DNA of 64,000 nt from Candidatus Nomurabacteria bacterium RIFCSPHIGHO2_01_FULL_37_25 (GCA_001786765.1 MFTH01000013.1:19974-83973); one strand, 5' to 3'; numbered from the stretch's first letter, positions 20,080 to 57,446 are shown. Program-made: numbers and translations. Notes: generated by a model not told the origin, from the letters alone.

Positions 20080-20222
20080 TGAATCACAAAACTTTAAAAA
20101 TATAACTTTCTGCAAGGGTTTCGAGGCTGGCGAGCCGAGAACTTCAGAATTTTTTAAGCTTCGAAAAATTCGTACCGGAAGAAAGTTGATATTTTAGAGT
20201 TTTGTGATTAACGATATGCTAT
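20080..20222. repeat. Nested-hairpin repeat element, copy 1 (A-type arms aatcacaaaac…gttttgtgatt)
   Basis: The core GGGTTTCGAGGCTG-N-CGAGCCGAGAACTTCAG-R-ATTTTTTAAGCTTCGAAAAAT-Y-CGTACC is shared with three other loci. It is flanked by roughly 30-bp inverted arms. Confidence 0.8.
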
Positions 20223-20231
20223 GATTAATTA

Positions 20232-20828
20232 ATGATCGGAAGCTTAAAAGGAAAAGTAATACTAAAAACAGAGAAATTTTTGATATTAGAAACTGCTGGG
20301 GTTGGATACAAAATCAGCGTCTCCCCGGATACAATGTCTAAAGTAAGTACCCTTCTTCGTTCGGAGAAAAATGATATTATCGTATCATTTTGGATTCATA
20401 CTCATGTGCGTGAAGACATGTTGGATTTGTATGGATTTTTAGAAAGACAAGAGTTAGAATTTTTTGAAATGCTTATCAATGTATCCGGTATTGGACCAAA
20501 AGGAGCATTGGCTATTTTGGGAATTACTTCAATTGAAACATTGCGTAAAGCCATAAGCACAGGTGACACATCGTATCTCACAAAAATATCTGGCATCGGT
20601 AAAAAAACTGCTGAAAAAATTGTGATAGAACTAAGGGATAAGATAAGCGAAGAAAAGAATGACGTTTCCCTGAAAGAAGAATTGGACGCGCTTGAAGCAT
20701 TAAAATCTCTGGGCTACTCACAAAATGAAGCCCGTGAAGCGTTAAAAAAAGTTCCTGTTAACGCGGATACAAATACAAAAATTCGTGAAGCGTTAAAAAT
20801 TTTAGGTAGCCATGCCAAAGGCAGGTAA
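20232..20828 (+). CDS. ruvA: Holliday junction DNA helicase RuvA
   Basis: MIGSLKGKV…ETAGVGYKI…; HhH motifs GIGPKGALAIL and ISGIGKKTAEKI; C-terminal domain III. Confidence 0.9.
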   Translation: MIGSLKGKVILKTEKFLILETAGVGYKISVSPDTMSKVSTLLRSEKNDIIVSFWIHTHVREDMLDLYGFLERQELEFFEMLINVSGIGPKGALAILGITSIETLRKAISTGDTSYLTKISGIGKKTAEKIVIELRDKISEEKNDVSLKEELDALEALKSLGYSQNEAREALKKVPVNADTNTKIREALKILGSHAKGR

Positions 20829-20836
20829 AAAATGGA

Positions 20837-21736
20837 ATGCCTGAACTTCCAGAAGTAGAAAATTTACGCCTTGGACTAACTCGTCATATTATAGGGCAAA
20901 AAATTCTCGGGGTGAAAATCTTTAAACCAAAGCTTGTTTCTGGGAATGGAACAAAAAGAATTGCCTCCTCTAAAAAAGTAAAAGAGTTTATCAAAGGAAT
21001 CGTGGGGGAAAGATTCATAGACATAGATCGACGAGCTAAAAACCTCATCTTTAAACTAAGTAATGGAAAGAGGCTAATATCACATTTAAAAATGTCTGGG
21101 CAATTTGTTTATAAAAATGCAAACAAAAAAGAAACAATTATTGGCGGTCATCCTATAAAACTCTCGGAAACAAAACTCCCAAACAAACATAGTCATATAA
21201 TTTTCAAACTAACTCATGGCGCTCTTTATTATAATGACATTCGCATGTTCGGATACATGCTCTACTACAAAGATATTAAAGATTTTGAAAAAGAAAATCA
21301 TTTTCAATTTTATGGCATTGAACCATTATCGAAAGAATTTACCTTAGAATATTTTAAGGATTCTTTAAAAAACAAAAGGGGTAAAATTAAAATTATTCTC
21401 ATGAACCAAAAGATAGTTACAGGTTTGGGTAATATTTACGCTGATGAGAGCCTTTTTGAAGCCGGCATAAAACCACTTAGATCTCCTAATTCTCTAAACA
21501 AAAAAGAAGTTGAAAAATTATATAAATCTATAATTAGAATATTAAAACGCGCAGTTAAGGTCGGAGGATCATCAGTCGCCACTTATCGCCTAATCGACAA
21601 CACTAAAGGCAACTACGCCAGAGAGCATAAAGTCTATAATAAATATGGAAAACCTTGTGTAAATTGCAAAACTCAACTCAAAAAAATAATAGTTGGAGGG
21701 CGTACGACGATTTTTTGTCCTAAATGTCAAAAATAA
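20837..21736 (+). CDS. mutM: Formamidopyrimidine-DNA glycosylase (Fpg/Nei family)
   Basis: N-terminal MPELPEVE. H2TH region. C-terminal zinc finger CVNCKTQL…GRTTIFCPKCQK. Confidence 0.9.
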   Translation: MPELPEVENLRLGLTRHIIGQKILGVKIFKPKLVSGNGTKRIASSKKVKEFIKGIVGERFIDIDRRAKNLIFKLSNGKRLISHLKMSGQFVYKNANKKETIIGGHPIKLSETKLPNKHSHIIFKLTHGALYYNDIRMFGYMLYYKDIKDFEKENHFQFYGIEPLSKEFTLEYFKDSLKNKRGKIKIILMNQKIVTGLGNIYADESLFEAGIKPLRSPNSLNKKEVEKLYKSIIRILKRAVKVGGSSVATYRLIDNTKGNYAREHKVYNKYGKPCVNCKTQLKKIIVGGRTTIFCPKCQK

Positions 21737-21742
21737 AAAATT

Positions 21743-22207
21743 TCAAATTTTTATCATCCTAAAAAGCGCTACTCCCAACGCCACAGAAACATTTAGAGAT
21801 TCTTTTTTACCACGCATTGGGATTTCAGCTATTACGTCGCATTTTTTTAATACATTTTTTGGTATCCCTGTTACTTCCGCGCCGACAATAAAAACATTTT
21901 TATCTTTTAATTTCACTTTCTTATAGTCAATTGATTTTTCATCTTGCTCTACGCCAATAATCAGATATTTTTCTAGCTTTAGTTTTGCAAGAAGTGGAAA
22001 AATATCCTTCTTCTCTTCCCAAAGCACAAACTCTTCTGCTCCTAAAGCAGACTTCGCTAAATCTTTTCTTTTCCTGCCGAATCTATCAAGTGGCGCTGGC
22101 GTGTACCCTGTTAAATAAATTTTATCTATATCCACAGCATCGGCCGTGCGAAACATAGCGCCGACATTTTCTACGCTTCGAATGTTATGCAGTATCAAAA
22201 TATTCAT
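21743..22207 (-). CDS. SpoU/TrmH-family RNA 2'-O-methyltransferase
   Basis: …IGVEQDEK…VFIVGAEVTGIPKNVLKKCDVIAEIPMRGKKESLNVSVALGVALF matches SPOUT motifs. Confidence 0.8.
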   Translation of the reverse strand: MNILILHNIRSVENVGAMFRTADAVDIDKIYLTGYTPAPLDRFGRKRKDLAKSALGAEEFVLWEEKKDIFPLLAKLKLEKYLIIGVEQDEKSIDYKKVKLKDKNVFIVGAEVTGIPKNVLKKCDVIAEIPMRGKKESLNVSVALGVALFRMIKI

Positions 22208-23550
22208 AAATTTAAGAAATTCTTATTACGCATTTTTTTATGATAAGCAATAGCAAATCTATGCGCCTCGCTATTTGCAAATAAAATTTCTCTTTTGTAT
22301 TTTACAGCGAATTCCTCATTACCCATAATGGCTTTGGGCTTATGTCTTTCATCTTTTACCACAGAAACTACAGGAATGCCAAGCTTTAACCTAGATAAAA
22401 TGACCTGCGCGCTGTTTATCTGCGCTGTGCTCCCATCTACGACTATAAGGCTCGGGAAGGGCCATTCTCTATGAGCCAAACGCCTCTCTAGAACTTCACT
22501 AAGCGCTCCTGTGTCATTGGCATTATTTTGTGTTCTTATTTTAAATTTCTTATATTCACTTTTAATTAATTCCCCATCTTCTACCACCGTCATAACCCCC
22601 ACCATATTTTTGCCACCCATATGAGCAATATCATAGGCTTCTATTCTAGAAACAGCGGGCAATATGTTCTCGGAGTCACCACTCCAAAATTCTCCCGAAA
22701 AATTTCTCTGTCCGTCGTCGCCACTCCTACCAAGGGTTCCCTCGAGAACATATTGCCCGCTGTTTTTTATTAATGCAATATCGTTGATGTGTTGCAAAGC
22801 AAAAATTTGTCTTTTTATCTCTCCAGCTTTTTCAAACTCATATTTTTTCACATATTCTTTCATGTCTTTTTTTAGATTTAAAAGAATTTGCTTCTTCTTG
22901 CCAGAAAAGAATAATTTTATATTTCTAATATTTTGCAAATACATTTTTCTATCATTCAAGTCGGGGACTAAATTTATTTGCTTATAAAATTCCATATAAT
23001 TTTTACTTTTTTCGTCTAGAAATGGGAAAATTCTACGAATTATTTTTATTGCCTCGCGAAGTTGTGAACTGCTCGTAAAAGGCCCGAAAACACTATCACC
23101 AGAAACAACAAAATTTCCAGCACTGCGCCCTTCCCCTTCGGGGTGGGACCCTCGCGCATGTAAATTTTGTTGTTTCTGGTTCAGATTCTTCCCTCGAATA
23201 ACAATAACTTTTGGTAACTTTTCCCTAGTGACACAAACATAATTAAAACTTTTATCAGATTTTTCTTTTGTATTATATTTTGGCTGATGTTTTTTTATAA
23301 GATTAGCTTCAAGTATTATAGCCTCCAACACACTGTCAGTAACCTGCCAATCTATTTTATTTGCATAAAAAACCATATCTACGAGAATAGGCCCGCGTGT
23401 TTCTATCAAATCTTTTCCAAGATAACTTTTTACTCTATCCGTAAGTGATGTGGCTTTGCCGATATATAAAATTTCTTTGCCTTTTTTAAAAAAATACACT
23501 CCGGGCTTGTCAGGTAAATTTAATTTTTTTAAATATTTTATATTTATCAT
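22204..23550 (-). CDS. uvrC: Excinuclease ABC subunit C (short form; C-terminal HhH not evident)
   Basis: GIY-YIG motif ([20 protein letters not shown]…RV.SY). UvrBC-interaction region. RNase H-like endonuclease domain ([11 protein letters not shown]). 4-nt overlap with uvrA. Confidence 0.85.
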
Positions 23551-26162
23551 CTTCGTAAAACTTTTTTTAAATACTTCCCAGTATAACTTTTTGTATTATT
23601 GGCCACTTCTTCTGGAGTGCCTTTAGCCACCAAATTACCGCCATTTACTCCCCCTTCAGGACCAATGTCTATAATGTAATCCGAACTTTTCACAATATCA
23701 AGATTGTGTTCTATGAGAACTACAGTGTTGCCTTTATTAACCAATTTATTTAAAACTTCTAAAAGTTTTTGCACATCATCATAATGCAACCCCACTGTCG
23801 GCTCATCTAAAAGATAAATAGTTTTTTCTAAATGTGGACGATAAAGCTCGCTTGATATTTTCACCCGTTGCGCCTCTCCGCCGGAGAGCGTAGTGGCGGA
23901 TTGACCAAGCTCTAAATAACCCAACCCCACATCCATCAAAGTTTGCAATCTATCAGAAATTGCGGGAATATCTTTGAAGAAAATCAGTCCATTTTCCACA
24001 GTCAAATGAAGCACCTCGTAAATATTTTTTTTCTTATATTTTATCGTGAGTGTTTCTTTGTCAAAACGTTTACCATTACAAACATCACAAGTGACATACA
24101 CCGTCGGTAGAAAATGCATTTCTACCGCTATTTCACCATTTCCCTCGCAAGCTTCACAACGACCGCCTTTCACATTAAATGAAAAACGGTTCGCCTTCCA
24201 GCCGCGAAGTCGCGCTTCTTCTGTTAAAGCAAAAAGGTCGCGAATATGAGTGAAAGCTCCAGTATACGTAGCCAGATTTGAACGCGGAGTTCGACCTATC
24301 GGAGACTGGTCGATTAAGATTGCCCGAGAAAGATATTCAGCGCCAGAAAATGAAGAACAATTAAAAACCTGCGCAGAACGATATTTTCTTTCATAACGAG
24401 CCTGTAAGTTTTTGTAAAGAATTTCATACATAAAAGAGCTTTTACCACTTCCAGAAACTCCGGTAATAGAAGTCATCACGCCGAGAGGAATTTCAACATT
24501 TAAATTGTTTATGTTAAAAATTTTTCCACCAGCGATTCTGAGCGCGCCTTTCTCTTTGCGACGTTTTTCAGGAATTTCTATTTTTGTTTCACCGCGCAGA
24601 TAAGAAAGCGTTCTAGAGTTGCTATTATTTCTCTTGGCAGTTAATAAATCTTCCAGATAATCAGAAACGACCACTTGTCCACCATGCACACCGGCTTTTG
24701 GACCGATATCAACAATATAGTCGGAAGCATAAATGGTGTCTTCGTCGTGTTCAACAATCAAAATCGTATTGCCCAAATCTCGAAGATTTTGCAATGTTTT
24801 TATTAAACGATCATTGTCTCGCTGGTGCAATCCTATAGTCGGCTCGTCGAGAACATATAATGCCCCGACTAATCTTGAGCCCAGTTGAGAAGCCAGACGA
24901 ATACGCTGCGCTTCTCCGCCAGAGAGCGTATTGGCTTTGCGAGAAAGCTGTAAATAATCCAAGCCAACATCCAGCATAAATTGGAGTCGCGCTTCTATTT
25001 CCCTAACCACCGGAATTGATATTTCCTTTTCTTGTTCGGAGAGTTTTAAGTTTTTAAAAAATTCATGCGCGTCAGCGATAGATAGTGTTGCTAATTCTAA
25101 AATATTTATTTTTTTATTATGATCTGTTAAAAATACGTTCAGCGCCTCCGGACGCAATCTTGCTCCATGACAAGCGTCGCAAGGTTCTTCCCCCATAAAA
25201 TATTTTGAGCCGAGACCGTTACAAGCTGGACACGCGCCGTAAGGAGAATTAAAAGAAAATAAACGAGGCTCAATTTCTGGAAAAGAAGAGCCGTCATTTT
25301 TGCAGGCAAATTTTGAAGACATTATAAATTCACTCCCACCCACCTTGATAGTCACTAATCCATCAGACTCAATCAGCGCCCTCTCAAGGGCTTCAGATAA
25401 TCTCATCCGACTTGTATCTTTATTATCAAAAAATTCATGCGCGGTAAAATGGTCAACCAATATGTCAATATTGTGAGCTTTGTTTTTTGAAAGAGTTATC
25501 TGTTCGCGAAGTTTTTTCATCACGCCATCCAAGCGAATTTCAGAGAATCCTTTTCCCAGTAAATCGTATAATAATTGATAGTATTCACCTTTTCTACCGC
25601 GAACTATGGGAGAGAAAATATTTATTTGATTTTCATCCCATTCTACGCCCATAACTTTCCGTTTATCCTTATTGGAATTTGAAGACGAAGAATTCTTCTT
25701 CCCCAGATTCCCTATCTTTTCTAAAACAAAATTCAAAATTTCTTCGTTTGAGAGTTTTTTGATTTCTTCTCCGCATTTTGGACAATATGGATGCCCGATG
25801 CGCGCATACATTACTCGCAAATAATCATAAATTTCTGTAATCGTAGCCACTGTGGAACGCGGATTGTTAGAACGAGATTTCTGATCAATGGAAATTGCTG
25901 GAGAAAGTCCCGTAATCTCGTCCACATCTGGTTTTGGCATTTGATTCAAGAATTGTCGCGCATAAGAAGAGAGAGATTCCACATACCTGCGCTGACCTTC
26001 GGCAAAGATAGTGTCAAAAGCAAGCGACGACTTGCCAGAACCGGAAACTCCAGTGATAACTACCATTTTATTGCGTGGCATTTCAACGCTAATATTCTTC
26101 AGATTGTGCGTCCGCGCTCCTTTTACCCTTATGATATCTATATTTTTTTCATTTTTAGCCAT
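23547..26162 (-). CDS. uvrA: Excinuclease ABC subunit A
   Basis: Two ABC ATPase modules ([23 protein letters not shown]…; …[12 protein letters not shown]…), zinc-finger Cys clusters and LSGGEAQR signature motifs. The start is chosen at [13 protein letters not shown]. Confidence 0.95.
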
Positions 26163-26223
26163 ATAACACAACGACACCCCACCGTATTCATAGGGGGTGT
26201 ATATTATTTTACAATTTATCACA

Positions 26224-29146: not shown

Positions 29147-29147
29147 T

Positions 29148-32426: not shown

Positions 32427-32903
32427 TTAAAACTTGAATAATTTTTTATATTCCATATAAGCTATGCCGTATTTATTTATCAGAATTCTGTCGTGCTTAT
32501 CGATAAATATAAATTTAGAAATGAAAAAAGAAATAATAGTAAACAAAATTACAAAAAAAGAATTAGTTATAATGCCGAAACCAAGAATCAAGAAAAAGAG
32601 CCCCCATTGGGTAGGAATCCGGGTGTAATAATATGGTCCACGACGAAAATGTTCTGCTTTTACTTCTCCTATTTTCCTTAATTCTCGGCCAGTTTTTTGC
32701 GCCCATAATATAATAATAGTAGCTAATATTAAAAAAAGGAAACCGACTGGTATCATGGTAGAATTTGAAAAAACAGTATAATCAAAAAAAAGGTCCAGAC
32801 AAATACCAACTAAAAGTAAAACAAAGTAAATAGTATATGAATGCGCCAAAACCTTATGCACATTATGTTTATTATTGGTTTCCACTTTTTTATTATACCA
32901 CAA
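32427..32903 (-). CDS. Hypothetical polytopic membrane protein
   Basis: Four predicted TM helices. No motif. Confidence 0.4.
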   Translation of the reverse strand: MWYNKKVETNNKHNVHKVLAHSYTIYFVLLLVGICLDLFFDYTVFSNSTMIPVGFLFLILATIIILWAQKTGRELRKIGEVKAEHFRRGPYYYTRIPTQWGLFFLILGFGIITNSFFVILFTIISFFISKFIFIDKHDRILINKYGIAYMEYKKLFKF

Positions 32904-33032
32904 ATCACAAAACTCATAAAAATATCAACTTTCTTCCGGTACGGATTTTTTGAAGCTTAAAAAATCCTGAAGTTCTCGGCTCGACAGCCTCGAAACCCCT
33001 GCAGAAAGTTATATTTTTAGGGTTTTGTGATT
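32903..33032. repeat. Nested-hairpin repeat element, copy 2 (A-type arms, inverted orientation)
   Basis: The reverse complement carries aatcacaaaaccctaaaaatataactttctgcaGGGGTTTCGAGGCTGTCGAGCCGAGAACTTCAGGATTTTTTAAGCTTCaAAAAATCCGTACCggaagaaagttgatattt. Lies between the polA stop and the next gene start. Confidence 0.8.
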
Positions 33033-33037
33033 CACGA

Positions 33038-35470
33038 TTATTTAACTTCTCCGAAATTGTTACCAAAACCAGAATGCACTTCGAGAGGAATGTCGGTTTT
33101 ATAATGTAAATATGATCTCTCTAGCACACCGTTCATAGCGTTTTTTATTATTTTATCAGCTTTTGACAATACACTTTCTTCTATTTCATAAACTAATTCA
33201 TCATGAATTTGAAGCACAAGATGAACTTTATCTAAAATTCCCGCCTTTTTAATATCCTCTTCTATATACCTTATGGCAAGCTTGATAATGTCAGCCGTGG
33301 CAGTACCTTGAATCGGCGCATTAGTGGCAGTACGTTCTGCCATATTTTTCAAAAATGGAATTTTAGAATTTATATTTGGGAAATATCTGCGTCTGCCAAA
33401 TAAAGTCTCAGTAAAAGATTTTTCTCTCGCAAATTTCTTTACTTCTTCTAAGTAATTTCGCACTCCCGAGAATTGATTGAAATAATTATCATAAAACTTT
33501 TGCGCTTCCTCGCGTGTATTTTCCCGTCCTCCAGCGTGGCCTCCGAGGTTTTTCCGCAGGGCTGTTACCCCCATACCATAAATTATGCCGAAGTTTATCA
33601 CTTTCGCTTTACGACGCATTTCGCTGTCTACTTTTTCTATCGGCACACCGAAAACGAAAGACGCTACGCCAGCATGCGGGTCTTTTTTCTCACGAAAAAT
33701 CTGCGTCATTTTTTTATCATTAGAGAGCATCGCCGCCACCCGGAGCTCGATCTGGCTGTAATCAAAAGCGCAAAGCTTGTAACCTTTTTGCGCCACAAAA
33801 CCATTTCGAATTCTTTTACCCAATTCTGTCTTTATTGGTAAATTTTGCAAATTTGGATCTTGAGAAGAAAATCTTCCTGTTGTTGAACCATTTTGTAAGA
33901 ATTTTGCATGTAATCTATTGTCAACACCAACCATTTTTGGAATCACATCAATATAAGTAGAGAGTAATTTTTGTAATTCCCTATAAGCAAGTATTTCTTT
34001 TACTATCGGGTTTGTTTCTTCTAATTCTTCTAAAACTGAAACCTTAGTGGAAAAAGAACCGGTAGCATTTTTCTTTTTACCAGACTTCATGCCCATCTTG
34101 CCAAAAAGCACTTCGCTCATTTGTTTGGGTGAGTTGATGTTAAACTCAGTACCTGCCATTTTATAAATTTTATATGTTAATTTATCTAATTCTTTATGAT
34201 ACTCTTGTGAGAGTTTCTCAAAATATTTTTTGTCTATTAAAATTCCATAATCCTCCATCTCTTTTACTATATGCATTATTGGACGTTCTATTTCTTCAAA
34301 AACTTTATCTAGTTTGTCATCCTTTAACTTTTTGAAAATATAAGTGTAAGCAACATCAAATGAATCAGTATTGGCAAACATTAAAATATCTTCTAGTTTT
34401 GGATTTGAAATATCAGAATTTATAAGCCAAAGAGCAATGCTGGCTTCTTGAAGCTTTTGAAGCGAAATTGATTCCTTATTTCCCTCCTGCACCTCACCCG
34501 GCCTTTCGGCCACCCTCTCCTTAGTAAGGAGAGGGGCTGGGGGTGAGGTCTTCTTTTCTCCAAAAAAGCTTTTCAGCCTTGCAAACAAAGAGCGGAATTC
34601 AAAAAGCTGAAAAATTTGTTCTATTTTTTTTAAATCCGCATTTTCCCAAAAAGTTTTTGCAGGCAGAATAAAATTTATCGTTGCGTCTGTCCGAATAGTC
34701 GCCAAAGTTTTAGAAAAAAGCGCTTCTTCTTCATTATTTTTCAAAAGTTCTATTACCCTAGGACTAAAACCAGCTTTTATAAAAGACTCCTCGTCTTTCT
34801 TAATTTTTTTATAAATTTCTTCAACCGCGCCGAAATTTAAAATTAAACTCGCCGCTGTTTTTTCGCCAATTCCTTTGATGCCAATAATATTATCCGACGG
34901 GTCGCCCCGGAGTCCTTTGTAGTCCGGCAAAAATTTCGGCCCGAAACCAAACCGCTCCACAACTTTATTTTCGTCATATAAAATAGTGTCATTGATTCCC
35001 TTCTTCAGGGTGTACACTTGAACTTTTTTGTCATTTATCAATTGCATAGTATCCATATCACCCGAAGCAATGATGATTTTTAAATCATTATTCTGTTTGT
35101 ATTTAGAAACAATTGTTCCGAGCACATCATCTGCCTCAAAGCCTAGAGCGTCATAAATAGGCACATTGAAAGCTTCAAAAATCTGGCGAGATTTTTTTAA
35201 TTGCATAACCAAAGCTTCATCAGTCTTGGCTCGACCAGCCTTGTAAGCGTCATACGCTTCGTGCCGAAAAGTCTTGCCGGGCAAATCATAACAAGCAACA
35301 ATATAATCCGGCTTCAAGTCATCTATAATCTTCATTAGCATTGTGGAAAGACCATACAATGCTCCAGTAGGTTCACCTTTAGATGATAAAAATTCCGGCA
35401 AGGCATGATAAGCGCGATGTATTATTGCATGAGCATCTAGTAATACGAGAGTTTTAGTATCTTTGGACAT
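33038..35470 (-). CDS. polA: DNA polymerase I (5'-3' exonuclease plus polymerase; no obvious 3'-5' exo motifs)
   Basis: N-terminal 5' nuclease (LVLLDAHAIIHRAYHALP…), HhH, and a polymerase domain with DYSQIELR and …QIHDELV… motifs. Contains an in-frame low-complexity insert encoded by a GC-rich palindrome (next feature). Confidence 0.9.
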   Translation of the reverse strand: MSKDTKTLVLLDAHAIIHRAYHALPEFLSSKGEPTGALYGLSTMLMKIIDDLKPDYIVACYDLPGKTFRHEAYDAYKAGRAKTDEALVMQLKKSRQIFEAFNVPIYDALGFEADDVLGTIVSKYKQNNDLKIIIASGDMDTMQLINDKKVQVYTLKKGINDTILYDENKVVERFGFGPKFLPDYKGLRGDPSDNIIGIKGIGEKTAASLILNFGAVEEIYKKIKKDEESFIKAGFSPRVIELLKNNEEEALFSKTLATIRTDATINFILPAKTFWENADLKKIEQIFQLFEFRSLFARLKSFFGEKKTSPPAPLLTKERVAERPGEVQEGNKESISLQKLQEASIALWLINSDISNPKLEDILMFANTDSFDVAYTYIFKKLKDDKLDKVFEEIERPIMHIVKEMEDYGILIDKKYFEKLSQEYHKELDKLTYKIYKMAGTEFNINSPKQMSEVLFGKMGMKSGKKKNATGSFSTKVSVLEELEETNPIVKEILAYRELQKLLSTYIDVIPKMVGVDNRLHAKFLQNGSTTGRFSSQDPNLQNLPIKTELGKRIRNGFVAQKGYKLCAFDYSQIELRVAAMLSNDKKMTQIFREKKDPHAGVASFVFGVPIEKVDSEMRRKAKVINFGIIYGMGVTALRKNLGGHAGGRENTREEAQKFYDNYFNQFSGVRNYLEEVKKFAREKSFTETLFGRRRYFPNINSKIPFLKNMAERTATNAPIQGTATADIIKLAIRYIEEDIKKAGILDKVHLVLQIHDELVYEIEESVLSKADKIIKNAMNGVLERSYLHYKTDIPLEVHSGFGNNFGEVK
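34492..34549. repeat. 58-bp GC-rich nested palindrome inserted in-frame in polA (copy A)
   Basis: cctcacccggcctttcggccaccctctccttagtaaggagaggggctgggggtgaggt. A near-identical copy lies intergenically at 59677-59734. It encodes the …SPPAPLLTKERVAERPGEVQ… linker of PolA. Confidence 0.8.
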
Positions 35471-45299: not shown

Positions 45300-45995
45300 T
45301 TATATTTTAAATAAGTCTTCAAATGCGTGTATTCCTTTTTTGTTTTTAATAAATTCAGCCGCGACTAATGCCCCTTTGGCAAACCCGACTCTATTATATG
45401 CTTGATGAGACAAGGTTATGCCGTCAGCGTTACTATCAAACACAACCTCATGGAAACCCGGATTCCTGCCGGCTCTAACAGAAGTAAAGTTAAGTCCCTT
45501 AATTTTATCTGCTATTTTTAAAGCTGTGCCAGAAGGACTATCCAATTTTGTTTTATGATGAATTTCCAATCCATACACATCATAATCTGGAAATCTGGAA
45601 AGAAGTTTCGCAGAAAAATCTATTATTTTAAAAAAAATATTAACTCCAACGGAAAAATTCGGGCTATACACCAAACCTATTTTATATTTTTTAATTATTT
45701 TCCTAACTATTTCTAAATCACCAGACCATCCAGTCGTGCCAACAACTAAGTTCACACCGAGTTTTGCAACCTCTTCGATATTTTTCAACACTACATCTTT
45801 TGATGTAAAATCAATAGCCACGTCTGCTTTGGCAATACTTTTAAGATCCAACTTGTCATTTATATTTTTATAATTAATAGAAACAATTTCAAAATCTCTA
45901 GAATCTCGACACAATGCGTCGATTTCCTGACCCATTTTACCATAACCTATCAAGGCGATTTTTACTCTATTTGTTTTGCTTATTTTATTTAACAT
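45300..45995 (-). CDS. dapB: 4-hydroxy-tetrahydrodipicolinate reductase
   Basis: IALIGYGKMGQEI Rossmann motif; …EIHHKTKLDSPSGTA… catalytic motif. Confidence 0.9.
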   Translation of the reverse strand: MLNKISKTNRVKIALIGYGKMGQEIDALCRDSRDFEIVSINYKNINDKLDLKSIAKADVAIDFTSKDVVLKNIEEVAKLGVNLVVGTTGWSGDLEIVRKIIKKYKIGLVYSPNFSVGVNIFFKIIDFSAKLLSRFPDYDVYGLEIHHKTKLDSPSGTALKIADKIKGLNFTSVRAGRNPGFHEVVFDSNADGITLSHQAYNRVGFAKGALVAAEFIKNKKGIHAFEDLFKI

Positions 45996-46026
45996 ACCAT
46001 TTTTATTATACTACACCCTTTATCAT

Positions 46027-46161
46027 GAATTACGAAACTCGTCGAAGGCATGTCTTTTTTAGGGGGTTTCGAGGCTGTCGAGCCGAGAACTTCAGGATTT
46101 TTTAAACTTAAAAAAATCCGTACCCTAGAAAAAGACATGCCTAGAAAGAGTTTCGTAATTC
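46027..46161. repeat. Nested-hairpin repeat element, copy 3 (B-type arms gaattacgaaactcgtcgaaggcatgtcttttt … aaaaagacatgcctagaaagagtttcgtaattc)
   Basis: Same conserved core as copies 1, 2 and 4. The right arm supplies the last 7 codons plus the stop of the downstream IMPase-family gene. Confidence 0.8.
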
Positions 46162-46905
46162 AAAGTTTATCAGCTTTTTAATCTGGTCATAAATCATGGC
46201 ATTGCTAGCAATAATTCCCTCTGTGGTAGAGGTTAAAGCCTCACCATTGAAATCAGTAAACTTTCCACCAGCCTCTTCTACTAAAAGCTTCCCGGCAAAT
46301 TCTGGAAATGTATCATAATTAAAAGAAATAGCAAAATCCGCCCTACCACAAGCCACATAAGCGTAATGCACTCCCAGAGAACCGAGGTTCCTCATCACGC
46401 TACTATTTTGCGATAAAATGGAAATGGTTTTTAAAAATTTTTCTCTGTGCGGAGGAACTGCGTATGGACCAATCATAAAAATCATGTCTTGATTGCGCTT
46501 AGAAACATAAACTCTTTTATTATTTAAAAATGTTCCTTTGCCTTTTTCTGCGGTAAATAATTCTTTATTGGAGGGATCATAAACTACCGCAAACTGCGTT
46601 TCTCCTTTATAAAGATGACTTAACACCACCGAATAGTGAGGCATGCCTTGAATAAAATTTATTGTATTACTAATAGGATCAATGATCCAGACATTTTCAT
46701 CTTCAATAAAAATATTGTGCATCTCTTCAGCATAGACTGAATGAGCGCCCGGAAAAGTATTTATCAGATTAGCAAGTTCTGTTTCTATTTCTATATCTTT
46801 CTGCGTCAACCATTGTTTGCTTTTCCCTACATCAAGGGTATGTCCCGCAATAGCCGGAAGTGAGTCCCCAAGCTCAACTATTTTTTTAATTATTTCTTGA
46901 TACAT
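46141..46905 (-). CDS. Inositol monophosphatase family protein (SuhB/ImpA-like)
   Basis: …VWIIDPISNT…; …HSVYAEE…; C-terminal …YAYVACGRADFAI… metal-binding motifs. Confidence 0.8.
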   Translation of the reverse strand: MYQEIIKKIVELGDSLPAIAGHTLDVGKSKQWLTQKDIEIETELANLINTFPGAHSVYAEEMHNIFIEDENVWIIDPISNTINFIQGMPHYSVVLSHLYKGETQFAVVYDPSNKELFTAEKGKGTFLNNKRVYVSKRNQDMIFMIGPYAVPPHREKFLKTISILSQNSSVMRNLGSLGVHYAYVACGRADFAISFNYDTFPEFAGKLLVEEAGGKFTDFNGEALTSTTEGIIASNAMIYDQIKKLINFELRNSF

Positions 46906-48328: not shown

Positions 48329-48363
48329 AATAAAACTGGGTTAAAGTGTTAAAATTATAGATT

Positions 48364-49069: not shown

Positions 49070-50244
49070 CTGGAGTTATTAAAAAATCTTCCAAATCTGC
49101 GTTTGCCTATTTTTAATCTAGTTCCAGAGTTTGGAATAATGTTTGAGTCTGACACAGACTCTCCTGAGTCTAGATTTGTGATTGCTTTCTCTTTTACTAA
49201 TCTTCTAAAATCAGCCCTTGATGAGACAACACCGCTTGAAACAACAGCATCCATAAGAGTATTCCCTCTCATTTCTATCATCTCTTCCGGGGTTTCTTTT
49301 TTCTGAAACGTGTTTTCCCATATCTCTTGCGTTTTTTTAGCTTGATTAGCATCATTCAAATCCTTAACAATCTCAAAGGCAAGCCTCTTTTTGTCCTCAA
49401 GCGGGTTTTGCTTCGGAATTTCTTCCATTGGTATTGTAGTTAACGTCTCAAAACATACAGTGACTACTTCGTCTGGAAAAGCCATTATTTTGCCAAATAA
49501 ATCTTCTGGTTTATCATCTAGAGCAATAGAATTACCTTCAGTTTTACCTATTTTCACGCCTTGTTTGTCTTCTAAAAGTTTTGTGGTCATAACAAACTTT
49601 TCTTTTTTTAACATCTGTCTCATGAGTTTCCGGCCCATCATCATGTTAAACATTTGGTCCCTCCCTCCTACTTCTAAATCAACAGCCATAGCGACTGAGT
49701 CATAAGCTTGCATGACCGGGTATAGAAATTCGCTGGTGTTTATCTCTTGACCCAATTTTAGTCTTTCTTGAAACATATCTCTCTCAATGACTTGACTATA
49801 AGTTAAATTCCCTGCGATTTGTAAAAACTCCACTGCGCTTAACTTTCCCAACCAGTCACCATTAAAAAGTACTTCGGCTGGGTTCTCTCCTTCAAATCTA
49901 AGAATTTTACCTGCTTGTTTTTTATAATTTTTAGCGTTGGTTATGGTCTCTTCATGGGTTAATACTTTTCTAGATGAAAGTTTCCCGGACGGATCACCAA
50001 TCATTGCAGTATAATCTCCAATCAAAAAGATAACCTGATGGCCCAATGCCTGCCACTGGGCAAGTTTTCGCAAACCAACCATATGACCAATATGGAGTTT
50101 ATCCCCTGTTGGGTCAAATCCTTGATATAGACGGAGTTTTTTACCAGACATTAAAACTTTTTCAAGCGTGGACTTGTCGGGATATATTTTTTCTACCCCG
50201 CGAGTTAACAATTCGTCTATTTTGTGTTTATCTATCATAGACAA
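49066..50244 (-). CDS. tyrS: Tyrosine--tRNA ligase
   Basis: HIGH-class motif GFDPTGDKLHIGHMVGL; KMSKS-type motif KIGKTEGNS. 392 aa. Confidence 0.85.
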   Translation of the reverse strand: MSMIDKHKIDELLTRGVEKIYPDKSTLEKVLMSGKKLRLYQGFDPTGDKLHIGHMVGLRKLAQWQALGHQVIFLIGDYTAMIGDPSGKLSSRKVLTHEETITNAKNYKKQAGKILRFEGENPAEVLFNGDWLGKLSAVEFLQIAGNLTYSQVIERDMFQERLKLGQEINTSEFLYPVMQAYDSVAMAVDLEVGGRDQMFNMMMGRKLMRQMLKKEKFVMTTKLLEDKQGVKIGKTEGNSIALDDKPEDLFGKIMAFPDEVVTVCFETLTTIPMEEIPKQNPLEDKKRLAFEIVKDLNDANQAKKTQEIWENTFQKKETPEEMIEMRGNTLMDAVVSSGVVSSRADFRRLVKEKAITNLDSGESVSDSNIIPNSGTRLKIGKRRFGRFFNNSS

Positions 50245-50304
50245 ACATTATCATAATAAAGAGAAAATCTCAAAAACCTGTTACGAAGTAAACAATTTTC
50301 TGTT

Positions 50305-52842: not shown

Positions 52843-52860
52843 AACTTCTGTTTTATCGTG

Positions 52861-53640
52861 TTATTGTCTCAAACCGAGACCACTGCGAAGAAAATACAAA
52901 TTGACCAAAAGGAGAATACTAGCGAGACTAAATAAAACGAGTATGCAAATGAAAAGTGAGACGTCGGCTGTGCCGAGAAAACCATAACGGAATCCATTGA
53001 TAAGATAGAAAATCGGGTTTATAAGCGAAACATTTTGCCATAAAGGTGGAAGCGAATGAATAGAGTAGAAAACACCGCCTAGATAGACAAGCGGTGTGAG
53101 CACAAAGGTTGGAATAATAGAAATACCGTCAAAACTTTTAGCATATATGCCATTGACGAGTCCCAGAAGGGCAAAAACGAGCGAGGAGAGAAAGAGAAAG
53201 AGAAAAACAACGAATGGATGCGCGATCGCTGGAAGCGCGAAAAAGAGAGAAACAATAAGCACAAGAACACCGACTAGCATTCCTCGCGCCACGCCACTTG
53301 CAACAAAACCAGCGATGATGATCCACGGTGGTGTGGGTGATACAAGAATTTCATCTATATTGCGCGAAAAGAATTTAGATATAAAAAAAGTGGTTGCGAC
53401 ATCTGTAAAAGAGTTCGTGATAACAGCGAGCATAACGAGTCCCGGAACAACAAAAAGAATATAGGGAACGCCATTTAATTCTCCAATACGTGAGCCGAGG
53501 ATGTTTCCGAATACAGCGAAATAAAGCACTGAAGTAACGACGGAGGGCAGAAGAGTCTGCGACCAAATACGCATAATGCGCACGATGCCTTTACGTAAAA
53601 TAGTATAGAAAGAGATAAATTGTTTTTTCTTGAGAGACAT
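52861..53640 (-). CDS. ABC-2 family transporter permease
   Basis: Six predicted TM helices, ABC-2 type. Confidence 0.8.
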   Translation of the reverse strand: MSLKKKQFISFYTILRKGIVRIMRIWSQTLLPSVVTSVLYFAVFGNILGSRIGELNGVPYILFVVPGLVMLAVITNSFTDVATTFFISKFFSRNIDEILVSPTPPWIIIAGFVASGVARGMLVGVLVLIVSLFFALPAIAHPFVVFLFLFLSSLVFALLGLVNGIYAKSFDGISIIPTFVLTPLVYLGGVFYSIHSLPPLWQNVSLINPIFYLINGFRYGFLGTADVSLFICILVLFSLASILLLVNLYFLRSGLGLRQ

Positions 53641-53641
53641 A

Positions 53642-54403
53642 TTAAGAACCGCTACTAGTTAGTTTTATAAATACATCCTCCAGCTTGCCACCACTATATC
53701 CATTTTGTGGCATAGAAGTGTCGTGCATAGCTAGTATCTCGTCCATAGTGCCACTCGCAATTATTTTACCCTTATTAATAATAGCGACATGCTTGGCAAG
53801 TTGTTCGGCTTCTTCAAGATAGTGTGTCGTGAGAAGAATTGTGATGCCTTGTTTGGTGAGAGTTGTAAGGTAATCCCACATACTCCGACGAAGTTCCACA
53901 TCCACACCCGCTGTTGGTTCGTCAAGAATTAGAAATTTTGGTTCGTGGATAAGCGCGCGCGCTATCATGAGACGGCGCTTCATACCACCCGAGAGTTTGA
54001 AGCCTATCTGGTCGCCCTTGTCAGCAAGACCGAGGTCTTCGAGCAGTTTTTTCGCGCGTGGGATAGCGACCGAACGTGGAATGCCATAATACCCAGCCTG
54101 ATTCACCACAATGTCTAGTGGTTTCATAAAAGGGTCAAAATTCACTTCTTGCCCGCAAAGTCCAATCATTTCTCTAGCGCGCTCTGCTTCCTTATCAATA
54201 TCTACGCCAAACACTTCTACTTTTCCAGCTGTTTTTGTGACAAGACCAGTGACAATGCCAATGAGAGTTGTCTTACCAGCGCCATTGGGACCGAGAAGAG
54301 CAAAAAAATCTCCTGCTGGTATTGTGAGGGAGACATCTTTTAGCGCTTCGGGGCCGTGAGCATACTTTTTTTGTAGATTGGTAACGATAAGAGCGTTTTG
54401 CAT
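53642..54403 (-). CDS. ABC transporter ATP-binding protein
   Basis: Walker A GPNGAGKTT, signature LSGGMKRRL, Walker B LILDEPTAGVD. Confidence 0.9.
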   Translation of the reverse strand: MQNALIVTNLQKKYAHGPEALKDVSLTIPAGDFFALLGPNGAGKTTLIGIVTGLVTKTAGKVEVFGVDIDKEAERAREMIGLCGQEVNFDPFMKPLDIVVNQAGYYGIPRSVAIPRAKKLLEDLGLADKGDQIGFKLSGGMKRRLMIARALIHEPKFLILDEPTAGVDVELRRSMWDYLTTLTKQGITILLTTHYLEEAEQLAKHVAIINKGKIIASGTMDEILAMHDTSMPQNGYSGGKLEDVFIKLTSSGS

Positions 54404-54439
54404 ATTTATATATTTATATAATAGATATTGCTATATAGA

Positions 54440-55537
54440 TTATCTATTCATCGGCATTATAAGATAAAGAAATGATGTATCCCCCACTGAAGACACCACT
54501 ATGGGGTTGCTAGGACCAAAGAATTTTATAGATATGCTATCGGTAATGATTGACTGGAAACAATCTAAAAAATATTTGTAATTAAAACCAAGCTCAACAT
54601 TTTCTCCTGTTATGGCGGCATCCAAATATGTTTTATTTTCTCCGATATCATTATTGGAAGACGAAAGCTCAAAAATTTTTTCTTTTGGTTTAATAACCAG
54701 ATTTACTTGATTAAATTTACCTGAAAAGATATTGGAAAGTTTAAGCGCGTTTAACAGGTCTTGTTTTAGCACTATGGCATTAGTTCCTGAAGTTTTGGGG
54801 ATGATTTGACGATAATCTGGAAAAACTCCATCAATTACCCGCGAAGTTAGATAAAAATCATCGGACGAAAAAGAAATTTGGTTTTTGTTAAAACATACTT
54901 TTATAATCGAAGTGGATTCCCCAAAAACTCGGAGTATTTCAGAAATATTTTTAAACGGAATAAGAATACCTGCTATTTCAGGAAGTCCTTTTATTTTTAT
55001 TTTTTTCTCAGACAGCCTAAAAGAGTCTGTGGAAACAAAAACCAAGTTGTCCTCATTTGTATATATAAAAACGCTTGAAATTTCAGGTTTTATATCAGAA
55101 ACAGAAGAGCTGTAATAAACTGATTTTATTCCCTCTATTAATTTTTTTGATTCTATTTCAAAACTTGTTCCCACCACCTTCGGTATTGTTGGGAAGTCTT
55201 CGTGCGGTTGCCCTTTTAGTTTTATCTTGCTTTTTTTGGTTTGGATGAGTAAATTACCATCAACACTTTCCAGATAAATATTTTCATTTTGAAAAACATT
55301 GGAAAAAATGCCATTTAATACCGACCCAGAAACCGCGACAATGCCTTCTTTTTCTATTTTTGCTGGAATTTCAACCTCAATACCAAGACTCAAGTTTGTA
55401 GATCTAAGTTTTAAAGATTTTAGAGAGGCAATAAGTAAAATTGAATTTAAAATCGGTAAAGTTAAATTTTTACCTGTAATTTTTTCCACTTGTAAAATTT
55501 TATTTTTTATTTCTTCAATTTTGCATTCTAGTTTCAT
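54440..55537 (-). CDS. dnaN: DNA polymerase III beta subunit (sliding clamp)
   Basis: 365 aa, three-domain clamp pattern, N-terminus MKLECKIEEIKNKILQVEKITGKN…LPILNSILL. Lies immediately downstream of dnaA. Confidence 0.85.
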   Translation of the reverse strand: MKLECKIEEIKNKILQVEKITGKNLTLPILNSILLIASLKSLKLRSTNLSLGIEVEIPAKIEKEGIVAVSGSVLNGIFSNVFQNENIYLESVDGNLLIQTKKSKIKLKGQPHEDFPTIPKVVGTSFEIESKKLIEGIKSVYYSSSVSDIKPEISSVFIYTNEDNLVFVSTDSFRLSEKKIKIKGLPEIAGILIPFKNISEILRVFGESTSIIKVCFNKNQISFSSDDFYLTSRVIDGVFPDYRQIIPKTSGTNAIVLKQDLLNALKLSNIFSGKFNQVNLVIKPKEKIFELSSSNNDIGENKTYLDAAITGENVELGFNYKYFLDCFQSIITDSISIKFFGPSNPIVVSSVGDTSFLYLIMPMNR

Positions 55538-55786
55538 CCCGTTTAGAAGTTTTCCTGATTTTACTTAATTTTATTAAATAATATCAGATAACTTGAATTA
55601 TTTTTTTTTATAATCTTTCCCCGAAAGGTATCTTCTAACGGGATTCATGTTTATATTTTATATATTTAATTTATTAATACTATTAGATACCTTGATAAGT
55701 GGATAACTCGTTTTGTTTTTAATTTATAAAGCTATTTTTTAATTTTTGTTTTTAATTTAAGTCTAATAACTTATAATAACTTTTAT
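55538..55786. promoter_or_regulatory. AT-rich dnaA-dnaN spacer with a paired DnaA-box-like site and the TCTAACGGGATTCAT motif; possible second oriC module
   Basis: TTGATAAGTGGATAAC at about 55692-55707; TCTAACGGGATTCATG at about 55642-55657; very AT-rich. Confidence 0.45.
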
Positions 55787-57130
55787 TTACTTAAACATAA
55801 TTCGTATTTGCTCCAGTTCTTGTAAAAGTTGTGAGTCGTTTTTGAGATCGTTTTTAATTTTTATACAGGAATGTATTACTGTTGTGTGGTCTTTCCCGCC
55901 CAGCTTTTCCCCAATCAACGGATATGATATATTAAAGTCTTCTCGAAGTAAATACATAACCACTTGTCTTGCTTTGACGATATCTTTTTTTCTGGTTTTT
56001 TCATAAACTGAAGCTTCTTCTAATTTATAATATTCACTCACTATTTTCACAACATCTTTTATTGCTATATTTTTTTTAGGCTTCATGTTGTTTTTTAGCA
56101 AGTTTTTTACTTCAATGAGAGTTAAAGGCTTGTTTTTCAAGCGATAATGGCAAACTATAATATTCAAACTCCCCTCAAGCTCTCGAATATTGCCATCTAC
56201 CGACAGAGCCACATACTCTAGTATTTCTTGGTCTAGGTCAATATCAAGTTCTTTTAATTTTACTTTTAAAATCGCAAGACGAGCCTCATACTCTGGCGGA
56301 GAGATATCTACTATCATTCCGGCCGCAAAACGAGACTTTAAACGGTCAGCCAATTCCGGAATGTAATTTGGATGTTTATCAGAAGAAAAAATAATTTGCT
56401 TGTTATTTTCGTGAAAAGTGTTGAATGTGTGGAAAAGTTCTTCCTGAATTTTTTCCATTTTGCCGATGAATTGAATGTCGTCTATGATTAAGAGGTCGTA
56501 TTTGCGATATTTTTCTTTAAAAGAATTTGCTTTATTGCTTTGAAGCGAGCTGATAAAATCAGTAGCGAATTTCTCCAAAGTCATATAGTGGACCTTTTTG
56601 TTTGGGTATTTATCTTTTATTGAATTTCCTACCGCTTGAATTAAATGAGTTTTACCGAGACCGGTGCCTCCATAGATAAAAAAAGGGTTGTATTTCGTGC
56701 CGGGATTATCTATTATGGCGAGACTCGCGGCGTACGCGAGCTCGTTGAAAGTTCCCACAATAAAAGAATTAAAATGATAGCGCGGATTCAAATTATTTTC
56801 TGGATTTATGTAAAGATCTCGCAAGGGCAGTTCTTTGTTTACGCTTGTTTCTATTATTGTTGTCGTTTTTTCTTTATTGTTTTCTATTTTAGTGATGGTG
56901 TATTCCACTGCGCGCATATTTTCATACGCATCGGCTATGGTTTTTGTGATAAGTTTGTGGTATTTATTTATGAGCCAATCGCGAACAAACTCATTTGGCA
57001 CACCAATATAGATGATGCCTGTGTCTTCTTTAACAATGGATGTATTTTTAAACCACGTGCTGAAATTTGCCTTTGACATGCCCGCCTCTATTTCTACCAG
57101 ACAATTTTTCCAAAGCTGTGTTGTGTTCAT
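55787..57130 (-). CDS. dnaA: Chromosomal replication initiator protein DnaA
   Basis: AAA+ Walker A GGTGLGKTHL; DnaA signature regions; C-terminal DNA-binding domain (…VVMYLLREDFNISYPLIGEKLGGKDHTTVIH…). Confidence 0.95.
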   Translation of the reverse strand: MNTTQLWKNCLVEIEAGMSKANFSTWFKNTSIVKEDTGIIYIGVPNEFVRDWLINKYHKLITKTIADAYENMRAVEYTITKIENNKEKTTTIIETSVNKELPLRDLYINPENNLNPRYHFNSFIVGTFNELAYAASLAIIDNPGTKYNPFFIYGGTGLGKTHLIQAVGNSIKDKYPNKKVHYMTLEKFATDFISSLQSNKANSFKEKYRKYDLLIIDDIQFIGKMEKIQEELFHTFNTFHENNKQIIFSSDKHPNYIPELADRLKSRFAAGMIVDISPPEYEARLAILKVKLKELDIDLDQEILEYVALSVDGNIRELEGSLNIIVCHYRLKNKPLTLIEVKNLLKNNMKPKKNIAIKDVVKIVSEYYKLEEASVYEKTRKKDIVKARQVVMYLLREDFNISYPLIGEKLGGKDHTTVIHSCIKIKNDLKNDSQLLQELEQIRIMFK

Positions 57131-57311
57131 CCTATTAGAAAGCGACTAAATAATAATTTTACTATTGACCATGCCCCGTAAATTTCTAACGGGATTCATT
57201 AGTCTCATATTATACTATTTTTGTTTAACAAAAAAACTCTTGTAAATAGATGAAAACTTATTAACTCTGTTGATAAGCTGTGGATAAAAATTTTAGATTC
57301 TAAGTCACTTT

Positions 57312-57446
57312 GAATTACAAAACTCGTCGAAGGCATGTCTTTTTTAGGGGGTTTCGAGGCTGACGAGCCGAGAACTTCAGGATTTTTCAAGCTTCGAAAA
57401 ATCCGTACCCTAGAAAAAGACATGCCTAGAAAGAGTTTCGTAATTC
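57312..57446. repeat. Nested-hairpin repeat element, copy 4 (B-type arms), inside the oriC region
   Basis: gaattacaaaactcgtcgaaggcatgtcttttttaGGGGGTTTCGAGGCTGaCGAGCCGAGAACTTCAGGATTTTTcAAGCTTCGAAAAATCCGTACCCtagaaaaagacatgcctagaaagagtttcgtaattc. Confidence 0.8.

Follow-up and report, generated by a model that had tools for sequence, protein, structure and literature searches.

The REP/REPIN-RAYT system of Proteobacteria consists of short extragenic palindromes that form hairpins, number in the tens per genome and lie at gene ends and in convergent spacers, and a repeat of similar habit occurs in a 64,000-nucleotide stretch of DNA from Candidatus Nomurabacteria bacterium RIFCSPHIGHO2_01_FULL_37_25 (GCA_001786765.1, MFTH01000013.1:19974-83973; hereafter, the window). 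This repeat, which is present in the window in four copies, is an element of 105–140 bp, a single strand of which folds as a T- or Y-shaped hairpin, and it represents an undescribed family of palindromic intergenic repeats from Paceibacteria-type members of the candidate phyla radiation (CPR), found in at least about 50 species. As with REP/REPIN sequences, the element has no detectable target-site duplication, appears to be non-autonomous, is long-lived at orthologous sites, and may be active as a strand-specific form of single-stranded DNA (ssDNA). However, the two have no sequence similarity, no conserved GTAG-type 5′ tetranucleotide was seen, no RAYT gene occurs in the flanks searched, and the pattern of conservation is inverted: the arms of a REPIN are conserved and its spacer is free, whereas the center of the present element is fixed and its arms are free to vary.

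The ERIC (IRU) sequences of Enterobacteria and the Correia elements (CREE/NEMIS) of Neisseria are similar in other respects: they are imperfect palindromes of 100–155 bp situated in transcribed intergenic regions, they occur in either orientation, and their presence varies between related genomes. Both have orientation-dependent effects on mRNA. But their sequences are unrelated to that of the element, they have no covarying three-way-junction core and are not conserved over a class-level clade, and the element shows neither the conserved terminal inverted repeats nor the TA duplication of Correia elements. In that it has no sequence in common with them and no TA duplication, conserved termini or flanking RAYT gene, the element belongs to none of the REP/REPIN, ERIC and Correia families. 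The palindrome-associated transposable elements (PATEs) and ssDNA hairpin ends derived from IS200/IS605 are also comparable, being repeats of a hairpin rather than of a sequence, with no target-site duplication and, in the present case as judged from GC skew, with an orientation bias relative to replication; yet in IS200/IS605-type elements the two subterminal hairpins differ from each other and insertion takes place 3′ of a fixed tetra- or pentanucleotide, whereas the present element is one nested hairpin with no conserved flanking motif, has no tnpA or tnpB nearby, and apparently favors the strand opposite to that expected. In shape only, it recalls the terminal hairpins of parvoviruses (the inverted terminal repeat of adeno-associated virus and the left end of minute virus of mice), which are ~120–145 nt long and consist of a long stem with two ‘ear’ hairpins at a three-way junction, with purine bubbles, flip/flop forms and recognition, as folded DNA, by an HUH nuclease; unlike these, it is a dispersed internal repeat of a bacterial chromosome, and no Rep-like gene was found.

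Much of bacterial diversity belongs to the CPR, or Patescibacteria, and their genomes of ~1 Mb are thought to be poor in repetitive and non-coding DNA; almost no non-coding elements have been described from them so far. The present element accounts for roughly 0.5–1% of such a genome and, with a 62-nt core that is nearly unchanged in at least about 50 species, is among the clearest structure-constrained non-coding elements in the CPR. If it is mobile DNA, it would point to unrecognized mobilization machinery in the CPR and would account for the recurrent breaks in assemblies of CPR metagenome-assembled genomes (MAGs); should it prove to be RNA, it would represent a candidate new class of motif; and, either way, it supplies a covariance model for annotating genomes and a marker for Paceibacteria-type contigs. 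The element is of interest both for CPR genome biology and for the discovery of RNA and DNA motifs, its mechanism being only proposed.

Four copies with a near-identical core had been reported in an earlier note made from the sequence of the window, and a covariance model recovers them at almost exactly the same positions:

20079–20214, + strand: copy 1, whole element, arm type A (104.9 bits)
32903–33034, − strand (sense strand on −): copy 2, whole element, arm type A (115.9 bits)
46026–46162, + strand: copy 3, whole element, arm type B in its long form, which has an outer internal loop (102.2 bits)
57311–57447, + strand: copy 4, whole element, arm type B (105 bits)

The site given for copy 1 was correct, but its end, placed at 20222, overshot by ~8 nt and is refined to 20214. 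With the filters of the model off, the window holds no copies beyond the four, and none lies within 10 kb of either of its ends, for a density in this genome of 4 per 84 kb, or ~1 per 20 kb. The 31-nt core pattern GGTTTCGAGGCTGNCGAGCCGAGAACTTCAG occurs four times in the window versus 0.00 expected from 100 shuffles, and the aligned cores of the four copies differ by one loop base and a few transitions. In a repeat search, the two A-type copies (1 and 2) align over 116 nt with 94% identity and the two B-type copies (3 and 4) over 137 nt with 96% identity, whereas the part conserved between A-type and B-type copies is only the ~71-nt core (90–92% identity). The whole unit, including its arms, has thus been copied recently within this genome, as the pairs 1/2 and 3/4 show.

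All copies fold in the same way whether as RNA or DNA (z of −5 to −12 against shuffles), and both arm types are self-complementary, as the note had held (z of −5.7 to −9.9 for the window copies, against dinucleotide shuffles). An outer stem, P1, of 20–35 bp, the sequence of which is variable provided that pairing holds, closes a 62-nt three-way junction that contains two short hairpins, P2 and P3, and about ten conserved unpaired bases. We term ‘sense’ the strand that reads GGGGUUUCGAG...; on it, the core consists, in order, of GG (the last P1 pairs), P2, a joining segment J2/3 (UCA), P3, a joining segment J3/1 (GUA), and CC (the last P1 pairs). The consensus of P2 is GGUU(U)C-[GA]-NNNN-GNCG-NNNN-[GA]-GAAYU, and that of P3, an A/U-rich hairpin, is GGAUUUUUU-AAGCUUC-AAAAAAUCY. 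The cores of the four copies, and the helices of copy 3, are located as follows:

20115–20176, + strand: three-way-junction core of copy 1 (last 2 P1 pairs, P2, J2/3 (UCA), P3, J3/1 (GUA))
32938–32999, − strand: three-way-junction core of copy 2
46063–46124, + strand: three-way-junction core of copy 3
57348–57409, + strand: three-way-junction core of copy 4
46026–46064, + strand: 5′ arm of P1 in copy 3, pairing with 46123–46162
46065–46091, + strand: P2 of copy 3, GGUU(U)C-[GA]-GGCU-GUCG-AGCC-[GA]-GAACU, with tandem G·A, covarying distal stem and GNCG loop
46095–46119, + strand: P3 of copy 3, GGAUUUUUU-AAACUUA-AAAAAAUCC
46123–46162, + strand: 3′ arm of P1 in copy 3

Across copies, GGGGUUU is almost invariant, and the C-G pair beside the tandem G·A alternates with U-A; the tandem G·A itself can shift 2 bp along the helix (UUUGGC-GA-GC-GACG-GC-GA-GCCAA) or be replaced by Watson-Crick UC/GA. 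P3 covaries in relatives and accepts large insertions, and some copies have hairpin insertions of 25–40 nt in the P3 loop or in J2/3. The irregularities of P1 near the junction are conserved: some copies have a 3×3 purine loop (GAA/GRA) and others have Watson-Crick pairs in its place (UAGGG/CCCUA), and the 3′ strand frequently has a one-base bulge. The type B arms constitute a ‘long form’, which a minority of relatives have too; it is distinguished by an additional internal loop (CUCGUCGARG / CGAGNAAGAG) and by the termini TTGAATYRYRAAAC. Small nested hairpins that are rich in G+C occur both in the P3 loop (...AAGTCCACCCCGCCTCATGGCGGGGCAAG...) and in J2/3 (...CAGGCCTTCGGCTCTGAGAGCCTCAGGCTCGAAGAG...); they are carried by L037 (981–1105 and 5–135; L-numbers are our labels for the sequences compared), L050 (3097–3220 and 4713–4871), L102, L106 and several metagenome copies, and the same inserts recur across different genomes, as though they were small mobile hairpins themselves.

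Two alignments, one of 101 sequences anchored on the 5′ half of the core and an independent one anchored on its 3′ half, show that this fold is maintained by compensatory change. In the 5′-anchored set, each of the distal pairs of P2 has 22–28 double changes, yielding variants such as GGCU/AGCC, GCGC/GCGC, GCCC/GGGC, GCUC/GAGC and GUGC/GCAC, and P3 and P1 also covary. In the 3′-anchored set, with the caveat that its alignment was fitted to the model, 95.9% of cells are paired versus 83.2% in shuffles, double changes occur in 22 of the 28 pairs, with 392 cells altered on both sides (0 of 500 shuffles attain the observed values), and pairing falls to 38–63% in controls in which the partners were slid. 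Inspection also led us to reject a coding core, the covariation being such as to alter any encoded peptide.

The distal arms, on the other hand, are essentially unique to each copy, even inside one genome. Their identity is 0.53 within and 0.48 between genomes, near background, and a distal arm has an identity of 0.69 to its own partner arm versus 0.47 to the arm of another copy. Types A and B, which the note thought might be two MITE subfamilies (MITE, miniature inverted-repeat transposable element), are instead two of very many such variants. At the adk-map site, inspection shows that L021 and L030 differ by paired changes across both arms.

Outside of the window, at least 109 stretches in species-representative genomes match the pattern GGGTTTCGA-N10-16-GAGAACTTCAG. 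All but ~8 of the 80 genome matches listed are from ~50 different Patescibacteria MAGs, and those ~8 are attributable to chance because their spacing is wrong. The matching MAGs are labeled as Paceibacterota, Nomura-, Yanofsky-, Adler- and Yonath-bacteria, Parcubacteria and Minisyncoccia, along with some Saccharibacteria. In metagenomes, at least 117 stretches match a pattern anchored on the 3′ half, P3 plus GUACC; viral contigs yielded only two matches, both with the wrong spacing and hence likewise due to chance. The comparison with Rfam proposed in the note assigns the element to no known family: the whole window, searched against Rfam 15 at the gathering threshold, gives only four tRNAs, and copy 3 with its flanks, searched at E≤10, gives only sub-threshold plant and animal miRNA hairpins (e.g., 28 bits versus a gathering score of 57, and 27.9 versus 117). 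Full-text searches of the literature on repeats and on structured or noncoding RNA in Patescibacteria, Parcubacteria and Nomurabacteria returned nothing relevant.

A related T-shaped family, which we call ‘type 2’, has a stem-GACG-stem-GAG hairpin within a three-way junction but different junction sequences; its layout is P1, (G/A)CUWSGRA, stem-GACG-stem, GAG..GA, P3 with a CAGCAG loop, and GUR. Examples are at L185 4421–4637, L195 4735–4945, L083 4722–4825, L086 1207–1309, and L033 3946–4049 and 5008–5111. Type 2 co-occurs with the present family (type 1) in the same genomes, and in two cases copies of the two types are paired head to head or tail to tail.

The two strands of the element are not equivalent. 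Of 105 copies, 95 have a sense strand that folds more stably than its complement under RNA parameters (by a mean of 5.4 kcal/mol), and 92 under DNA parameters (by a mean of 1.4 kcal/mol); mismatches in distal P1 are purine-purine in 108 cases versus pyrimidine-pyrimidine in 52, and the conserved proximal loops are all purine-purine. The sense strand is thereby shown to be the carrier of the stabilizing non-Watson-Crick features. Within the stems, G·U barely exceeds A·C (7:6 both in the distal stem of P2 and in P3, not counting the closing pair of the latter; 101:74 in distal P1), which is unlike the usual RNA families.

The settings reported for the window copies (rpsT/ruvA, polA, dapB and dnaA/rpmH) all hold. 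Copy 1 is between rpsT (19660–19911, −) and ruvA (20232–20828, +) and ends 18 nt 5′ of the ruvA ATG. Copy 2 is between the polA stop codon (33038) and a PEMT-like open reading frame (ORF; 32427–32903), both genes being co-oriented with it. Copy 3 is antisense to both of its neighbors, dapB (45300–45995, −) and the IMPase gene (46141–46905, −), and covers the final 22 nt of the latter, such that the IMPase stop codon is within its 3′ arm. Copy 4 is in the divergent region between dnaA and rpmH-rnpA, 24 nt downstream of two adjacent DnaA boxes (57268–57287). These boxes are the sole basis for the putative oriC in which copy 4 had been placed, and such boxes are not enriched across the window; a hairpin followed by a T-run, which had been pointed out downstream of this copy, is present at 57511–57567, but its link to the element, like that of the oriC, is incidental to one copy.

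Orientation was assessed from crude ORF calls, by recording the strands of the left and right neighbors relative to the sense strand:

All genome loci: (−,−) 39; (+,−) 30; (+,+) 12; (−,+) 9
Genome loci collapsed to orthologous sites, neighbors within 60 nt: (−,−) 20; (+,−) 16; (+,+) 3; (−,+) 2
Metagenome loci, an independent set: (−,−) 24; (+,−) 14; (+,+) 11; (−,+) 8

In the collapsed set, the excess of (−,−) over (+,+) is significant (p = 5e-4, binomial); between co-directional genes, then, the mRNA usually carries the complement of the sense strand. Convergent intergenic regions are 2.7-fold enriched and divergent (promoter) regions 2.8-fold depleted (p = 3e-5). The element abuts the 3′ ends of genes (at a distance of ~0), with stop codons frequently inside an arm, and it fills whole intergenic spacers inside conserved operons, e.g., adk-map and ftsZ-trxB, the last of which is occupied in nine genomes, in eight of them in the sense orientation. 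The neighbors are housekeeping genes (ftsZ-trxB, map, rpsT, rny, smpB-ssrA, rplT, efp, pnp and others), as are all of the 24 largest clusters of neighboring genes; the two pairs of inverted elements, in L070 and L197, enclose smpB, infC, rpmI, rplT, hup, lexA and comM. No RAYT/Y1 transposase was found among the 372 neighboring ORFs clustered (5–14 kb around copies).

Orientation is also associated with strand composition. A single orientation prevails throughout 17 of the 21 multi-copy loci. The GC skew at third codon positions (GC3 skew) is −0.041 in genes on the sense strand and +0.051 in those on the other strand (difference −0.092; 95% confidence interval −0.136 to −0.054); the sense strand is C-rich at third positions (negative GC3 skew) at 102 of 146 loci (p = 2e-6), and an intercept of −0.039 persists once gene orientation has been regressed out. 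The sign was calibrated on the window, where, to the left of dnaA (57 kb), the − strand is G-rich (+0.077 versus −0.053). Together, the skew and this calibration indicate that the sense strand tends to be the lagging-type (C/A-rich) strand.

Occupied sites are often empty in relatives whose flanks are 75–92% identical. For example, L070, L209 and L039 have a copy in the smpB-ssrA spacer, where L173 has none, and the site downstream of rny holds the element in the sense orientation in L097 and L089, in the antisense orientation in L197 and L061, and not at all in L191. Presence and absence at orthologous sites are thus combined with near-identical pairs within a genome, as in mobile repeats. 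The rny site has two further features of note: a promoter-like sequence, CTTGCCTTAAAAAACCCTTGATATATAATG, is strongly conserved downstream of the gene in five genomes (L097 5960–6010, L197 2380–2420, L089, L061 and L191 5880–5910), the element, when present, sitting exactly between it and the rny stop codon; and this stop codon is TAG in all four occupied alleles and TAA in the empty one.

Target-site duplications at the edges of copies, suggested by the note as a hallmark to look for, show no excess over a permuted control: the longest flanking direct repeat averages 4.61 nt, compared with 4.45 nt under a null of mismatched flanks, a comparison that duplications of 2–4 bp would escape. Isolated flank repeats, such as TTTATCA at copy 3 and ATTTTG at L070, are within chance, and TAAGTCA at copy 4, considered as a duplication, is really an extension of the palindrome. 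The outermost pairs of P1 often contain bases of the host: the TAG stop codon of rny pairs with CTA, AGAAAGTT...AACTTTCT occurs beside an ATG in L015, and, at the L016 site, even the empty allele contains TTTTTTATTT. Such cases suggest that the palindrome may be able to lengthen into the flanking DNA. In population contigs of the window species, many contigs end inside copy 3, indicating that the element breaks short-read assemblies of this genome; five independent metagenome contigs (L122–L125 and L127) begin 157–171 nt upstream of dapB, at points within copy 3 or on its boundary.

The note had left a choice between a structured RNA with covariation and a MITE, and parts of both hold. The covariation is real and extensive, but the antisense bias, the near parity of G·U and A·C, the skew and the turnover speak against an ordinary RNA gene or cis-regulatory RNA, and the lack of a target-site-duplication signal speaks against a plain MITE. 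Further points against the MITE are that the family has no terminal repeats in common (only the minority long form shares TTGAATYRYRAAAC) and that no parent insertion sequence occurs in the flanks; integron attC sites can be set aside because the termini do not fit RYYYAAC/GTTRRRY and the copies are dispersed beside housekeeping genes instead of arrayed. On balance, the element behaves more like a mobile DNA repeat of the REP/MITE type than like an RNA gene.

The explanation that we favor, and to which we give equal measures of credence and doubt, is that the element is a non-autonomous palindromic repeat akin to REP/REPIN and ERIC, the folded single strand of which is recognized by a putative trans-acting factor. 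The feature under selection would be the single-stranded fold, most likely of DNA that replication forks or cruciform extrusion would expose. We infer that DNA is the relevant form, as it is for REP/RAYT and for IS200/IS605 ends, from the weakness of the G·U signature, the loose tie to the direction of transcription and the replication-type skew, and the near-invariance of an asymmetric core implies a conserved trans-acting partner. This protein would take the folded strand as its substrate, for which an enzyme of the HUH/Y1 type, or another that is structure-specific, would fit, and would copy or maintain the element. The element would insert without detectable duplication, be subject to loss and inversion, and survive best at the ends of genes. 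The bias in orientation could arise from strand-specific mobilization, or else from selection that keeps the more stable strand out of mRNA or off the lagging-strand template, where an exposed hairpin is subject to hairpin-stimulated deletion or cleavage by SbcCD. Some copies may have been co-opted, e.g., as structures at mRNA ends, as is suggested by their long persistence at certain sites (downstream of ftsZ, in nine genomes).

Several observations weigh against such a mobile DNA repeat. No transposase or other candidate partner gene was found beside any of ~258 copies. The argument from replication skew is indirect, being drawn from third codon positions in fragments of 5–14 kb, and it places the structurally favored strand opposite to the lagging-strand template, on which the active strand of IS608 lies. 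The core remains intact at orthologous sites where flanking proteins are only 65–75% identical, and decayed copies are few, which is more like a function at each locus than like selfish DNA. At two helix-end positions, G-C alternates with G·U (58:42 and 76:25), a pattern typical of RNA. Finally, the population contigs of the window species include no empty allele, copies 1 and 3 being always present.

The alternative that survives best, which we regard as possible though rather improbable, is that the element acts in cis within mRNA, in 3′ untranslated regions and intercistronic spacers, where it would stabilize, process (through RNase III or another factor) or terminate transcripts, with mobility being secondary or ancient. 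Its position directly after stop codons (often with the stop in an arm), its filling of spacers in conserved operons such as adk-map and ftsZ-trxB, and its enrichment between convergent genes are all consistent with such a role; but the favored strand is antisense to both neighbors in about half of the well-defined sites, such that no single strand fits, and the usual mRNA strand has U·C/C·U and A·C mismatches opposite the G·A and G·U of the sense strand. Similarly, up to nine genomes share an occupied site, with the element for the most part facing one way, but at the rny site both orientations occur. The covarying stems, the loops that take hairpin insertions as do those of many RNAs, and the two helix ends at which G-C alternates with G·U would suit an RNA, whereas the near parity of G·U and A·C within the stems would not. 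As for termination, P1 is A/U-rich and no T-run follows the stem on either strand, so the element is not a Rho-independent terminator, and canonical terminators often adjoin it (e.g., at L012, L034, L041 and L097). A further point for the cis-acting role is that the window site orthologous to the one at which L003, L016 and L092 have the element bears another hairpin repeat, and the long-term retention of an intact core at orthologous sites keeps this role viable.

Equally tentative is a broader proposal, that the core functions as a folded nucleic acid and has a dedicated putative partner conserved throughout the Paceibacteria. In one form, it may be a new class of T-shaped ssDNA hairpin element that undergoes HUH-type copying at replication forks, by analogy a bacterial chromosomal counterpart of the parvoviral terminal hairpins, with a palindrome that may grow by copying the host flank; in the other, it may be a new self-cleaving or protein-binding RNA motif by which these minimal genomes cut or protect transcripts at the ends of genes.

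That the sense core is an independent structured RNA, i.e., a self-cleaving ribozyme or a protein-binding small RNA borne by the repeat, strikes us as unlikely. Hammerhead and twister ribozymes do occur in multiple copies scattered through bacterial intergenic regions, and a compact junction with about ten invariant unpaired nucleotides (a U bulge, UCA, GUA and the GNCG loop), covarying stems of variable length, and strong conservation across a whole class would befit a ribozyme, although no Rfam ribozyme or small RNA matches at E≤10. The tandem G·A stacked on a helix also resembles that of the hammerhead core, but here it shifts by 2 bp or becomes Watson-Crick, and the hammerhead consensus CUGANGA...GAAA is contradicted by the fact that GGCU/AGCC can become GCGC/GCGC. 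A hammerhead reading of ‘CUGACGAG...CGAGAAC’ is rejected likewise: CUGACGAG, which many copies have, is the P2 stem-loop, which covaries to GCGCGACGGCGC, GCCCGACGGGGC and others, with CUGG/CUGU in the window copies. Copy 4 has a promoter-like site (57270–57299) on the sense strand upstream and the hairpin with T-run (57511–57567) downstream, but the promoter match is weak (9/12), the arrangement is not common to the other copies, and most copies have no evident route to sense transcription; the TTGAAA and TATAAC motifs of many 5′ arms, read as an internal promoter, are adjacent rather than 17 nt apart.

It is just as improbable that the element is a cruciform or hairpin site serving host chromosome biology (replication, recombination or nucleoid organization) rather than its own spread, since the link of its orientation to strand composition, and so probably to replication, its regular dispersal (~1 per 20 kb over 84 kb), its conservation across a class of genome-reduced bacteria and the DnaA boxes beside one copy are offset by frequent empty sites in close relatives, recent duplicates in one genome, and the lack of fixed spacing or of particular loci other than gene ends, and we know of no precedent for a 60-nt three-way-junction host site of this type.

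Other features were noted in and just beyond the window. Between copy 4 and rpmH (57450–57630) there are two T-run hairpins on opposite strands, at 57473–57500 (−) and 57511–57567 (+), and a sigma-70-like promoter (11/12 match) on the − strand at 57628–57600; taken together, they may mark out a gene on the − strand for a small RNA of ~130 nt, for which Rfam gave no match. Just upstream of copy 1 and next to rpsT, at ~19174–19600, are a HicA-toxin-like gene and an adjacent ORF of 72 amino acids, presumed to be its hicB partner. TraC-like, TraG-like (P-loop) and PrgI-like proteins are encoded just past the high-coordinate end of the window (63344–64000 and beyond, L247 1–9926), forming a cluster of the type IV secretion or conjugation-like kind near dnaA, without a copy of the element.

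Another repeat family is represented in the window at 34505–34560 and 59689–59744; it is a G+C-rich palindrome that reads CCCTCTCCTTAnTAAGGAGAGGGG and then GGGGGTGAGG. Rickettsia palindromic elements (RPEs) resemble the three-way-junction element in being palindromes that have proliferated in the reduced genome of a host-dependent bacterium, but they are typically in frame within genes, whereas the element is intergenic; it is the G+C-rich repeat in polA that is RPE-like. This copy (34505–34560) is in frame between the 5′-3′ exonuclease domain and the polymerase domain, with the translation ...TSPPAPLLTKERVAE..., and the other (59689–59744) is between a convergent R3H/Jag-like gene (59190–59669) and an ORF at 59738–61126, exactly where L003, L016 and L092 have the three-way-junction element.

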